A stretch of 64,000 nt of DNA, taken from a virus. Shown piece after piece: positions 7,960 through 57,792 of this stretch. The position numbers were made by a program, and so were the translations under genes. The stretch lies in the IMG/VR virus record IMGVR_UViG_3300033168_000001, positions 60-64,059 of that record, one strand, 5' to 3'. Numbering within the stretch: the stretch's first letter is position 1; every line of letters begins with the position of its first letter. The notes beneath the pieces were generated by a model that did no database searches, was not told the DNA's origin, and saw only the letters and a list, made by a program, of their open reading frames with translations.

Positions 7960-8142
7960 TTACTGTGCCTGCTCATAGCCAGGGAAAGGCGGCGGCAAAC
8001 CGCGCTTCTCCCAGGACGTCACCGCCTCTGATACGATCCACTCAAGGAGCGCGTCGTCGGCTGCTTGCTCCGGCAACCCACGCCGTCGCAGCATCTCATA
8101 GATACGGTTCTTTGCCGCTGCTTTGCCCGTCCAGTTAATCAT
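7960..8142 (-). CDS. Small hypothetical protein
   Basis: MINWTGKAAAKNRIYEML...; RBS GGAG upstream. Confidence 0.45.
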   Translation of the reverse strand: MINWTGKAAAKNRIYEMLRRRGLPEQAADDALLEWIVSEAVTSWEKRGLPPPFPGYEQAQ

Positions 8143-8301
8143 GGTTGCTCCTCTGACTCCGTACGTCCTGCACAATAAACGCGCCAGCAAACATGAGAGC
8201 GGCGACAATGGTCAGCCAGCGCCATCCCGTCGCATAGGCCGCTGCATCCAGGGCCAATGCGATACCCACCATGGCCCAAAAGGTGTTGGATGGTAGTATG
8301 A

Positions 8302-11554: not shown

Positions 11555-11601
11555 ATGTTGGGTGCTGTTAGATGCGCTGCACGTTCGATCTGAGGCACCA
11601 T

Positions 11602-12009
11602 CAACAACCTCCCAGGGGACCCCGCCCTTTAGGGCTGGGGAGGAATGGGATCGGCCACGCCGATGGGCCGCGATCGCGGCCCATCAGTGACCGCATCCGT
11701 GGTAAAATACAGGTGAAGTACCGCGCACTCTTAGCCTTACGGAGCCTACGGGATTCCTGGTCGGGTGGCGGGAAACATGCACAGAAGGGCATGGGATAGC
11801 GAAAGCGCCTATCTCTGGTCCACCAAGTGGGCCAAAGAATCTGTCTGAGATATCCGTTCTGTGACGCGCCAAGCTGACAGTAGCTGTTGAGCACCTGGCG
11901 CGCTGGTGTGAGTCCAGCTAGGGTTGAGTCGCAACGTACTCCTCCTGAACGTGCCGCCCAACACGCGGGGCAGGCGCAAGCCCCTGGCTTTAGCCATGGG
12001 GTCGGTGAC
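11602..12009 (+). mobile_element. Non-autonomous IS200/IS605 derivative 1 (PATE/MITE-like, no ORF)
   Basis: Target CCAT on the left; subterminal hairpins CCCCGCCC-TTTA-GGGCTGGGG and AAGCCCCTGGCTTTAGCCATGGGG; ends ..TGAC; no TSD; internal TGGTAAAAT at 11700. Confidence 0.8.
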
Positions 12010-49212: not shown

Positions 49213-49440
49213 TCATACCTGCACTCTCCACTCTTTCAATCCCGCATACCGCAGCGCTTCGGCGCGGCTCACACGCCACAAATAGTAGTGGTCGAAAGTG
49301 CCTGACCAGTGGTGTTCCGGCTTCCCTGGGAGGTGCAACCGCACGACCGTATGGCCGCGCCCATCCTCATCCAATTTGACCGCCAACACACGCGGATCAT
49401 TGTGGGTGGATGATCGCCAGTACACCCATTTACGGCTCAT
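49213..49440 (-). CDS. Small hypothetical protein whose ATG abuts element 2
   Basis: MSRKWVYW...; ATG immediately follows the element boundary at 49441. Confidence 0.6.
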   Translation of the reverse strand: MSRKWVYWRSSTHNDPRVLAVKLDEDGRGHTVVRLHLPGKPEHHWSGTFDHYYLWRVSRAEALRYAGLKEWRVQV

Positions 49441-49802
49441 ACGATGGACCTCCCAGGAAACCCACCCTCTTTAGGAGTGGGAGGAATGGGACCGGCCCCC
49501 CGCCAGTCGTGGTATAATAGAGACAGCACCACACGAAAGGCACGAACCTCCGGGGGACACAGTTTTAGCGTGTGCGGCAGCGCCAGCGGGTGACGCCGCC
49601 ATCGGCGTCGAGGCAGGAGTAAGCCGAGAGAATCGGCGGGACGGCGGCTGCATGGTCCTGACTCCTGTTGTGGTCGGTCGTACACCCTCGGGTGGCCGGA
49701 GCAGTCCGGTTGTAGTGCGGCCGGGAGGTCCGCCCCCTGTGTCGGGTATCGAAAGGGGCAGGGCTGCTGAAAGCCCACGGCTTTAGTCGTGTGGCACATT
49801 AC
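49441..49802 (+). mobile_element. Non-autonomous IS200/IS605 derivative 2
   Basis: Target TCAT; left hairpin CCCACCCT-CTTT-AGGAGTGGG; right hairpin AAGCCCACGGCTTTAGTCGTGTGGC; ends ..TTAC; TGGTATAAT at 49510. Confidence 0.85.
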
Positions 49803-50035
49803 ACCCCCTCCTCCACCAACATGGCCGGCCTGTGCCCCCACTGCCGGCAGTCCTCGCAGCGCGTCAGCACCATCAACACGCGCCCTGTTTGATCTCTGAC
49901 TGTCCAGCATTTGTCCATCAGCGCGTGGCTCGCCTCCGTCATCAGCGCGCCACAACAGCAACACTGATCTGGCCTTTCGTCGACGTCCTCTGACTGATCG
50001 ATCCATGCCTCCATGCCCTCGTGTTGTGTCGTCAT
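49799..50035 (-). CDS. Small Zn-finger protein
   Basis: CCCCG...RCEDC; its stop codon lies inside the element 2 terminus. Confidence 0.55.
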   Translation of the reverse strand: MTTQHEGMEAWIDQSEDVDERPDQCCCCGALMTEASHALMDKCWTVRDQTGRVLMVLTRCEDCRQWGHRPAMLVEEGV

Positions 50036-55029: not shown

Positions 55030-56064
55030 TTAGAACGGCAGGGCGACGGTGAGCCGCTCGTCGATGCGCTTATCAAGCGTGGCGTACTGCTCCGGGGTGA
55101 TTCCGCCAGCGTCCGGTCCCGCGTCGCGCGCCGTGAGCGCGTCCTGCCGGACCTCGTGCGCGCCGTCCTCATTGGAGACCAGTCCAACACGGCGCTCCAA
55201 TTCGTTGTAGGGCACGACGGGCGGGGTAGCTTGGGCCTCAATCACCTGGGGCGCGGCCAACGCGGCTTTCACCGTGTCCTTGAGCGCGGTCAGGGTCGCG
55301 GCCTCGTCTGCGGTGATCTGGCCGGCCTTGCGTGCGGCCTTGAGCGCGTTCCACGCCGCCAGTAGATCATCCTGGGTTGTGGCCGCATTGAAGTCCCGCC
55401 AGAGATGGTCGTAGACGCCGGTCATGGTGGGGTCGTCGATCACTTCGCCGGTCGCGGTGTTGATCGTGCGCCCGCTTGGCGTCACGTCTACGACGGTCGG
55501 CGTCGCGCCGTCCTGGGCCTGCATGTCCTCCATCTCCTCCTCTGAGTACATTCCTCCGATGGAGTCGGGGAAAGCCATGCGCGCCACGTTGGAGATGCAG
55601 CGGGCGCGCAGCATGTTGCCGGGGATTTTCTTCCAGTTGGGGTTTGTGGAGGGGTAGCCAGCGCGCTCGGCGTCCTTGATGCTAAAGCTGTACTCCTGGC
55701 GCTGCGTGGCCGTGCGACGCCTGTAGCTGACCGTGGCGCGTTCGTCGGTCGCCTCAAGCCATTGCAGTGAGTCGTCGCCGTGATCGCGGTAGATCAGCGC
55801 GGCCATGGTTTCAGCGGTCACAGTCGGCTTGCCTTTGATGACGTTGATCCCGTTGATCGCCGTCATGGCTGGCAATCCTAACTCCCGGCCTTTGAGCATG
55901 ATTGTCAGGATGGCGGCGCGATTGCCTTTGAGGCTATCGGGCATCAGTCCGCTGTCGGCCAGGACGGCCGACATTTGGGACATGGTCGACCACGCATCCG
56001 GCGCGGGCAGCAGTGACGTATCTGCGCGTGTCGTCGTCAGTTGCGTCGAGGTGTTTGTACTCAT
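55030..56064 (-). CDS. RecT/Bet-like single-strand annealing protein
   Basis: IMLKGRELGLPAM.AINGINVIKGKPT, WKKIPGNMLRARCIS..AR.AFPD..GGMYSEEEM. Confidence 0.85.
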   Translation of the reverse strand: MSTNTSTQLTTTRADTSLLPAPDAWSTMSQMSAVLADSGLMPDSLKGNRAAILTIMLKGRELGLPAMTAINGINVIKGKPTVTAETMAALIYRDHGDDSLQWLEATDERATVSYRRRTATQRQEYSFSIKDAERAGYPSTNPNWKKIPGNMLRARCISNVARMAFPDSIGGMYSEEEMEDMQAQDGATPTVVDVTPSGRTINTATGEVIDDPTMTGVYDHLWRDFNAATTQDDLLAAWNALKAARKAGQITADEAATLTALKDTVKAALAAPQVIEAQATPPVVPYNELERRVGLVSNEDGAHEVRQDALTARDAGPDAGGITPEQYATLDKRIDERLTVALPF

Positions 56065-56474
56065 CTAGAACCTCCCAGGATACCCCCGCCCTTTAGGGCT
56101 GGGGAGGAATGGGATCGGCCCCTGGGCGATGGGCTGCGTGAGCAGCACAGAGCCCCCATCCATCGGGCGATCCGTGGTAAAATAAGGGTAACGTTCCGCA
56201 AAGGCACAAGCCGTTGACCAACGGCGGGAACACGGTTTCGTGTGGACGTGCGTGGTACCGGATAGCAATGGGCTATCCGATGAGGCAGGGGTAAGTCGAG
56301 AGAATCGACGGGACGGCGGCTGCATGGTCCTGACTCCTGTTGTGGTCGGTCGTACACCCTCGGGTGGCCGGAGCAGTCCGGTTGTAGTGCGGCCGGGAGG
56401 TCCGCCCCCTGTGTCGGGTATCGAAAGGGGCAGGGCTGCTGAAAGCCCACGGCTTTAGTCGTGTGGCACATTAC
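56065..56474 (+). mobile_element. Non-autonomous IS200/IS605 derivative 3
   Basis: Target TCAT; left end like element 1; right 193 bp near-identical to element 2; TGGTAAAAT at 56175; ends ..TTAC. Confidence 0.85.
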
Positions 56475-57070: not shown

Positions 57071-57792
57071 AAGCGTGTCGTGGCCGATGCGACATCAGAC
57101 GCGGCAGAGACTGGATACAGCGCGAGCGCACGATTGAACACGTCGAGCGCGCTTTGGCGTATAGTCGCGCTGTCTATCGTCGTTCGCTTGGCGGAGGCGG
57201 CGGCGTAGGATGCGGAGGCGGCGGCGTAGGATGCGGAGGCGGCGTAGGATGCGGCGTAGGCGTTGTAGGCGGCGTTGTAGGCGGCGTTGTAGGCGGCGTT
57301 GTAGGCGGCGGCGTCGGCGTTGTAGGCGGCGTTGTAGGCATCTTTAGCTGTGCGTGCCGTTGCCGCATCAACGATAGGCGCAAGCGCGCGCAGGGTGGCC
57401 GCGTGATCCGTGAGGCCAATCGCATCGAGCGCGCGCGGCGTGATGTCACGGACAGCCCAATCCGCCAGCAGATACGCCGCCTGTTGGTCGATGTCATAAT
57501 GACCCGCCGTGCCGATGAGGCGCGGCGCGAAAGGCTTGAGGTCATCCAGATGGTCAGCGAACAAGCGATCATTGAGATTGCGTCCGAATGCGGCCAGGAC
57601 CGGGCTGACGCATTGTGGCCGATCTGACCACGGCTCATGAGCGAGCCATGATGATAGTTCGAGAAGGCACGCGCCGTCGTCGATGTTTTGGTGGCTGCCG
57701 GTGGAGAGCGTGATCGTGTCTAGTGTACGTTGCTGTTGTTGCATCGTCGTTGCTCCGTTATCTGTGTGTGGTGTTGTCGGTGTCGTGGTCAT
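57067..57792 (-). CDS. Phage protein with AYNA/ASY low-complexity repeats
   Basis: LSTGSH..DGACLLE..WSDRPQCVSPVL; tandem GCCTACAACGCC units at about 57190-57340. Confidence 0.65.
   Translation of the reverse strand: MTTTPTTPHTDNGATTMQQQQRTLDTITLSTGSHQNIDDGACLLELSSWLAHEPWSDRPQCVSPVLAAFGRNLNDRLFADHLDDLKPFAPRLIGTAGHYDIDQQAAYLLADWAVRDITPRALDAIGLTDHAATLRALAPIVDAATARTAKDAYNAAYNADAAAYNAAYNAAYNAAYNAYAASYAASASYAAASASYAAASAKRTTIDSATIRQSALDVFNRALALYPVSAASDVASATTRL

Follow-up and report, generated by a model that had tools for sequence, protein, structure and literature searches.

Three gene-less elements in this phage DNA, E1, E2 and E3, are in our view miniature derivatives of TnpB-only IS200/IS605 insertion sequences that target TCAY, an explanation to which, taken as a whole, we give a probability of about 0.78. 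They would be found on start codons because TCAT and TCAC are the reverse complements of ATGA and GTGA. We propose that they are non-autonomous PATEs or MITEs of elements living in Chloroflexota-type hosts and, by analogy with the mechanism of IS608 and ISDra2, that a Y1 TnpA acting in trans would move them as single strands. On covariation evidence, they insert without duplication and directly 3' of a 4-nt target (TCAT in the case of E2 and E3, CCAT in that of E1), which is read by pairing with the nucleotides just 5' of the left-end hairpin. An antisense insertion of this kind would lie immediately 5' of a start codon whose next base is A, typically at the 4-nt stop/start overlap of packed operons. 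The downstream ORF would be kept whole, and we propose that such insertions persist in compact genomes for that reason. The features are collected in Table 1; the window is the whole 64,000-nt stretch of DNA analysed, part of a 66-kb IMG/VR virus record.

Table 1. Features of the elements and their flanking genes, in window coordinates.
Feature	Position	Strand	Description
E2	49441..49802	+	362-bp ORF-less element, probable PATE/MITE of TnpB-type IS200/IS605; left end 49441, right end 49802
Target/TAM TCAT of E2	49437..49440	+	minus-strand reading is the ATGA that starts the 75-aa gene
E2 GGAGG	49453-49449	-	spacer TCCATCGT (8 nt), then ATG 49440
E2 left-end subterminal hairpin	49461..49481	+	TTTAG-type loop
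E2 extended -10, TGGTATAAT	49510..49518	+	top strand, directed towards right end
E2 right-end subterminal hairpin	49773..49795	+	CTTTAG loop
E2 right-end terminal motif (TEM) TTAC	49799..49802	+	minus strand GTAA
78-aa gene upstream of E2	49799..50035	-	ends EEGV*, stop from E2
75-aa gene downstream of E2	49213..49440	-	ATG adjoins E2 left end
E3	56065..56474	+	410-bp probable PATE/MITE
Target/TAM TCAT of E3	56061..56064	+	minus strand is ATGA at recT start
E3 GGAGG	56075-56071	-	spacer TTCTAG (6 nt), then recT ATG 56064
RecT-like gene	55030..56064	-	344 aa, PF03837
E1	11602..12009	+	about 408-bp probable PATE/MITE, related to E2/E3; TEM TGAC
E1 GGAGG	11612-11608	-	spacer TTGTTG (6 nt), then ATG 11601
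Unoccupied E4 site	8139..8153	-	native GAGGAG, CAACC and ATGA, with stop/start overlap, at 8142

On the minus strand, which is the gene strand, all three elements finish in GGAGG, 6-8 nt and ATG. This pattern had first been proposed in a sequence-only reading of the same DNA and is borne out by the window sequence; the spacings of 8 (E2), 6 (E3) and 6 nt (E1) lie within 5-10 nt. The conserved gene-strand end consists of CCCATTCCTCCC, a hairpin with a CTAAAG loop, CCTGGGAGG, the 6-8 nt spacer and ATG. About 50 terminal nt are common to all three elements, E2 and E3 have 194 nt in common at 98% at the end away from the ATG, and DNA folds place hairpins on the same strand at both ends of each element. 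The gene at 56064, described earlier as RecT-like, matches PF03837 and follows E3, and the ATG of the 78-aa gene upstream of E2 (50035) overlaps the TGA of the preceding gene. E1 is at no real gene start: its target is CCAT (11598-11601), and the ATG after it opens just 23 codons, the number given in the earlier reading, before a terminator hairpin. The right-end limit of E1 is uncertain, either 12009 or 12016.

Few mobile genes are as abundant as IS200/IS605 and TnpB elements, from which Cas12 descends. The left-end motif of the window elements was found directly upstream of TnpB genes and diverging from them, first in a viral contig (L005) and then in many metagenome and Streptomyces/Mycobacterium loci (among them L012, L018, L036, L039, L045 and L073). 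In the full-length relative L018 the gene product is a 386-aa protein that matches PF07282 (9.6e-21) and PF01385; its named homologues are from Chloroflexota. The window left end matches L018, L036, L028 and L073, and the right end of E2-E4 (E4 is described below) matches L063; in a comparison made with a possible guide-RNA (omega/reRNA) scaffold in mind, only the terminal 43-80 nt aligned to full-length copies. Since the motif is a left end in the orientation of tnpB, E1-E3 have the window plus strand as their top strand and run antisense to the phage genes; the left end of E2 is homologous to those of TnpB-bearing copies. The TEM is TTAC in E2, E3 and E4, TGAC in E1 and most Chloroflexota-type copies, and TCAA in actinobacterial copies. 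The sequence-only reading had pointed to ATGA(A) target motifs reported for IscB-type IS200/IS605 elements. The IS200/IS605 type and the lack of target duplication hold, but the relatives carry TnpB (PF07282/PF01385); no IscB was found next to homologous ends, which flank TnpB genes only.

The whole virus record had no match to the TnpB domain PF07282, Rfam at gathering and E-value thresholds gave no relevant match for E1-E3 (HEARO and omega RNA families included), and blastn of E2 against GenBank phages gave no match. A TnpB alignment scan of IMG/VR yielded 3 loci only, a relaxed left-end pattern matched 4 times in 401 Streptomyces genomes, and a right-end pattern scan of IMG/VR for further E2-type MITEs returned chance matches only. 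The extended -10 of E2 is also found just upstream of tnpB in L059, L082 and L084 and is kept in the window elements as TGGTATAAT or TGGTAAAAT; judging from these sequences, it appears to be inherited from the tnpB promoter of full-length relatives. We rejected TATTATACC on the gene strand as an outward promoter, since the top strand opposite it is the extended -10 of tnpB. Two further observations concern the wider family. In the Streptomyces loci L101, L106 and L120 a small ribbon-helix-helix-like ORF (..RRSLNSE(L/I)..) lies on the opposite strand between the left end and tnpB. Two IMG/VR phage contigs of 30% GC (L142 and L145) show a hairpin that resembles a right end, with a CTTTAG loop and ATTAC after it; this end may be distantly related to those described here.

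Next, we searched related phages for empty alleles. The empty E3 allele, found in L092-L095, reads GGAGTTCGCACACCT/ATGAGTAC (CACACCT/ATGAGT, with the slash at the insertion point) and equals the window sequence minus exactly 56065-56474, a clean 410-bp insertion without target duplication. E3 is present or absent among phages with 99% identical RecT. In the empty allele a native GGAG precedes the recT ATG by 11 nt; in the occupied one it is about 420 nt away. For E2, homology of L094 to the window ends at 49803 and fixes the right end (a half-empty allele). The element boundaries proposed from the sequence alone were thus correct at both places. A full empty E2 allele was not found, the right-end flank being present in L094 only, and every contig with the E2 flank proteins is broken within the repeat. 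The 75-aa protein beside E2 matched nothing but itself, the 78-aa upstream protein has no record under that start, and a search of IMG/VR for close relatives of the flanking proteins found none. L032, which is about 93% identical overall to the window phage, has E3 and a fourth element, E4 (L032:1166-1564; 398 bp), which lies exactly 5' of ATGA, before ATGATTAAC, and is fixed by half-empty alleles. A second copy of E1 in L094 is 99.3% identical, has other flanks and is again followed by ATGG. These presence/absence alleles show movement or loss and do not point to the responsible enzyme; tnpA was seen in none of the fetched loci.

Several observations bear on the history of these sites. E3 is identical at 410/410 positions in the window (56065-56474) and L032 (L032:7327-7736), while their recT genes differ at 17 sites, and the recT of L032 is nearer to that of L094, an empty allele (5 differences). 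The presence of E3 therefore conflicts with recT relatedness, and its distribution could reflect recent spread, homing or precise excision. The identity of the two E3 copies suggests that E3 is younger than the recT divergence or was exchanged after it, and because of this identity a test for purifying selection on recT after insertion was uninformative. At the E2 locus (window 49216-49803 versus L094:13318-14372), the module downstream of the 78-aa gene is replaced between otherwise collinear phages, with E2 and the 75-aa gene in the window and three other genes in L094. The left breakpoint of this replacement is exactly at the E2 right-end junction.

The empty alleles also bear on a different identification of the elements, as phage leader or non-coding RNA genes, or as IscB-type rather than TnpB-type derivatives. 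The elements are indeed ORF-less, structured and conserved, with an internal extended -10 promoter. However, the empty allele lacks the element and nothing else, the ends share homology with those of TnpB-carrying insertion sequences, and neither the Rfam search nor the homologous ends gave support to an RNA family or to IscB. We consider this identification very improbable.

We then compared the insertion sites of the wider family. On the gene strand, RTGA follows a GGAG motif by 4-9 nt in nearly all of about 50 independent copies, and copies without GGAG have RTGA at the equivalent left-end position. Read on the top strand, the elements sit 3' of TCAY in about 50 copies. The ATGA target named in the sequence-only reading was therefore right in that the insertions lie exactly 5' of ATGA, but the real target is its reverse complement, TCAT, on the plus strand. 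In 32 of 34 copies, a TCAT target goes with an A directly 5' of the left-end hairpin and a TCAC target with a G (Fisher 9e-7, kinship not corrected); in E2 this base is an A, which matches the last base of its TCAT target. Both copies with CCAY targets (E1 and L044) have G where others have A. This A/G versus T/C covariation corresponds to guide pairing of the IS608 type, so that the preference for ATG or GTG is written in the left end, in a single base. TCAC is a published TnpB TAM (AmaTnpB; PMC10278001), and NTGA TAMs have been published for IsrB (PMC9581776).

Do the elements lie on start codons more often than the frequency of ATGA predicts? In the window about 32 of 472 ATGA sites are predicted gene starts (6.8%, from a rough gene call), and both ATGA-type insertions, E2 and E3, are at starts (p ~0.005). 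Among sites found by pattern, 14-15 of 31 open a coding-like ORF of at least 50 aa, compared with 22.8% of 3005 control RTGA sites in the same loci under the same test, a control that also counts internal in-frame codons (binomial p 0.002-0.005). Completeness of the N-terminus was verified by Pfam profile coordinates for L005, L011, L027, L033, L038, L039 and RecT (E3). In L005 the target gene is an exoribonuclease whose residues 2-165 lie on profile positions 2-173 of 177; in L027, from another phage, it is a prohead protease. Other insertions are at the narH/narJ junction (L008) and between an ABC ATPase gene and a permease gene (L073). Among copies retrieved by TnpB protein only, true N-termini were hit by 5-6 of 12 in Streptomyces (three lipoprotein signal peptides, a response regulator and NarJ) and by 3 of 7 of Chloroflexota type; in 6 of the latter 7 the element is antisense to both neighbours.

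Altogether, roughly 35-50% of about 50 independent insertions, from Chloroflexota-type metagenomes, Streptomyces and a P1-like phage, are exactly on true starts. This exceeds the 10-20% expected among tolerated intergenic RTGA sites, a null share that is an estimate and not a measurement, and the excess could come from insertion preference or from the survival of insertions that do no harm. Roughly half of the copies lie off gene starts, including E1 and its L094 copy, L059 (co-oriented, inside the 3' end of a gene), and L063, L079 and L084, which are merely intergenic. The full-length L018 (L018:2146-2500) splits an RRXRR-family gene at an internal in-frame GTGA, so TCAY targeting also gives ordinary gene disruption. 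In-frame openness upstream of RTG in reconstructed empty sites was tried as a further measure and dropped, as it did not discriminate starts from internal codons at 65-72% GC.

It might be argued that insertion occurs at any TCAT and that two of three elements are at starts by chance: the window has only three copies, one of which (E1) is off-start, and starts within ATGA are common in this phage (32 of 108 predicted genes). We give this very little weight. The window figures themselves speak against it (p ~0.005), the same placement is seen for E4, L027 and in many unrelated genomes, and in several cases the protein N-terminus is complete.

The right end affects the upstream gene. Where that gene overlaps the target at RTGA, its last codons change from NN|R TGA to NN|G TAA with an E2-type TEM, or to NN|T TGA with an actinobacterial TEM; both restore the stop at the same place. 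In E2, the GTAA end supplies a TAA (49801-49799) in place of the TGA of ATGA, which leaves the upstream protein as it was. The E2 site as reconstructed earlier, with EEGV* either way, agrees with L094, where the gene ends GAGGAGGGGGT/ATGA: its final codons are GTA TGA in the empty state and GTG TAA in the occupied one. The C-terminal residue is preserved in E2 (V), L008 (S; RRRS* either way) and Salmonella phage SJ46 (A). The commoner right-end motif, gene-strand GTCA (TEM TGAC), gives no stop, and the L073 ATPase gains a 5-aa tail there; the gene upstream of E4, which is in a different frame, gains a tail ending RNVPHD*. The earlier claim that both flanking proteins stay unchanged is thus valid for E2 and E3 but is no rule of the family.

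To interpret the GGAGG motif, we compared it with the structure of the left end. In E2 it is the complement of CCTCC, the 5' arm of the left-end outer helix. In DNA folds, top-strand CTCCCA (alignment columns 15-19 of the left end) pairs with TGGGA(G) beyond the hairpin. In an alignment of 34 sequences, four pairs of this outer helix are changed on both sides (CCGA/TCGG, CCAA/TTGG and CCGG/CCGG), and none of 500 shuffles reached the observed score. The inner hairpin is 94-98% paired over the 34 copies, again with compensatory changes. Three of the four Shine-Dalgarno core bases are complementary to the outer-helix arm, so the covariation of this helix explains most of the motif as transposon-end structure.

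Lying 6-8 nt before the ATG, GGAGG could nevertheless replace the displaced native RBS. In the strongest form of this idea, which underlies the sequence-only reading, it would be a selected, working Shine-Dalgarno sequence, the right-end stop would be selected as well, and both neighbours would stay translated. GGAG(G) does precede RTG by 4-9 nt in two very divergent subfamilies, and 9-10 of 12 Streptomyces copies retrieved by TnpB protein have GGAG in varying contexts (TGGGAG, TCGGAG, TTGGAG, CAGGAGG). In L073 a GGAGG precedes the permease start within the ABC operon. The occupied E3 allele has GGAGG 6 nt from the ATG, compared with 11 nt for the native GGAG, and RecT is intact in every occupied allele; at the other end, two different motifs, GTAA and TTGA, regenerate stops. 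However, the helix that accounts for most of the motif is also predicted to sequester it in the mRNA of E2 and E3 (-37 and -33 kcal/mol per 100 nt), whereas the RBS of the empty allele is predicted to be unstructured and unusually open (-10 kcal/mol per 100 nt). GGAG is absent in L082, which is at a probable true start, and in L063, L079, L084, L101 and L102. In the protein-retrieved samples 6 of 8 copies at starts have it, as do 5 of 10 elsewhere, so that its presence is not associated with placement; its conservation in the pattern-based sample is biased by collection, since that pattern required CTGGGAG. The commoner right-end motif, moreover, supplies no stop. On the helix covariation, the predicted pairing, the absences and the lack of association with starts, we hold a selected, working Shine-Dalgarno sequence to be a tentative proposal with the odds somewhat against it. 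The motif and its spacing are as originally described, while its core is mostly a helix complement, predicted to be paired and partly absent in relatives.

A sequence near this motif also has a partner in the downstream gene. At 49325-49340 on the minus strand, inside the 75-aa gene, CACCTCCCAGGGAAG has its complement about 100 nt upstream in the E2 end TTCCTGGGAGGT; this complementarity produced a spurious microRNA-like Rfam alignment. It could be due to chance or to a long-range pairing that covers GGAGG.

We also looked at the reading frame that crosses the elements. On the gene strand, an ATG at element nt 4-6 (GTAATG or GTCATG) opens a frame that ends on the TGA of the target ATGA. This bridging frame is open throughout E2 (120 codons; minus strand, 49437-49799), E3 (136 codons; 56061-56471) and an independent phage MITE, L027 (130 codons), and over 92% of the length of E4 (122 of 133 codons). 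Shuffling gives a chance of 2.4-5.8% per element for an open frame. The six MITEs at gene starts all have lengths of 2 modulo 3 (362, 410, 398, 392, 416 and 419; chance about 0.004), the class that places the bridging frame onto the target TGA; the off-start E1 is 0 modulo 3.

Since the bridging ATG is only 3 nt past the old start position, it would be served by the displaced native RBS, and ribosomes translating this frame might melt the left-end helix and re-initiate downstream. Besides the open frames and the length class, native Shine-Dalgarno sequences 7-8 nt before the bridging ATG in E2, E4 and L027 are consistent with such a relay. In E3, though, 14 nt separate the native GGAG and the bridging ATG; the frame is interrupted by stops in L026 and L017 and closes 11 codons short in E4. 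There are few copies, E2 and E3 do not count as independent because half of their sequence is shared, and GC-rich DNA that was once coding often has open antisense frames. Full-length copies follow no length rule, and the IMG/VR right-end scan added no MITEs to the set. We regard the relay as improbable.

To our knowledge, avoidance of harm to compact genomes by TnpB elements is known only for self-splicing IStrons. A broader proposal is that TCAY-targeting TnpB insertion sequences and their miniatures are specialists of operon junctions, with a right end that restores the stop and a left end that supplies either an RBS or a bridging ORF. We think this rather doubtful in its full form. If true, insertion would be scarless at the protein level, which could explain persistence in compact phage and operon DNA. 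The placement described here itself offers a second route, simpler than that of IStrons, in which a whole target class, TCAY, puts the element between stop and start. Gene callers mis-set starts and stops at such junctions, the elements are of relevance to phage engineering, and TnpB guide RNAs derived from them would have the unoccupied gene junctions of related phages as predicted targets. The natural occupied and empty alleles of the same recT gene make the claim directly testable.

PATEs of IS200/IS605 have been described in Geobacillus stearothermophilus (Meers et al., PMC10055086, from which the term TEM is taken) and Haloquadratum. Like these, the window elements are gene-less and have same-strand subterminal hairpins, a fixed 4-nt TAM, a terminal TEM and no target duplication; for both, mobilisation in trans is presumed and a guide-RNA scaffold may be present. 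Unlike them, the window elements are in a phage and antisense to operons, their TAM, read on the opposite strand, gives a start codon plus A, their left end reads GGAGG just before the start, and their right end regenerates the upstream stop. No mention of any of these differences came up in the searchable papers. With AmaTnpB (PMC10278001), as with IS608/ISDra2, they share a TCAY 5' of the left end that is read by nucleotides adjoining the left-end hairpin, and their full-length relatives have a TnpB of the same PF07282/PF01385 type as AmaTnpB. In contrast to AmaTnpB, the window copies have no tnpB and are at TCAT (E2, E3) and CCAT (E1) instead of TCAC; the searchable literature gave no description of copy placement relative to genes for the AmaTnpB family.

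The closest parallel in placement is a TnpB-only insertion sequence (IS1341 group) in the P1-like phage SJ46 (KU760857), which is antisense and exactly 5' of the next gene's ATGA, with the TGA stop of the upstream gene (DdrA) at its right-end junction. That element differs from the window copies in being full-length (about 1.3 kb) and in Enterobacteria, with a weak AAGG/AGGG at its left end and not GGAGG; its TnpB is distantly related (about 45% identity over the zinc-ribbon part). IStrons, in which a group I intron is fused to an IS605/IS607 TnpB element (bioRxiv 10.1101/2023.11.20.567912), are likewise TnpB-family transposons that lower the cost of their own insertion for the host gene. They splice RNA and lie in sense orientation inside genes, whereas the window elements have no ribozyme (no Rfam match) and, sitting between stop and start, leave the ORFs uninterrupted. 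PATEs, TAM and TEM motifs, TCAC TAMs and trans-mobilisation are thus already known. We did not find the link between TCAY and start/stop overlaps, the antisense placement at junctions or the regenerated stop in the searchable literature, outside which many subscription papers lie.

Two other repeat families were noticed in the window. Between 51794 and 52049 are four long perfect hairpins (family D3) with different stems and a shared CGGTGGACACCG-type apex, spaced by 51, 69 and 81 nt. Tandem 9/12-nt repeats resembling GGCGGCGTTGTA (family D1) lie at 57184-57348, within a minus-strand ORF.
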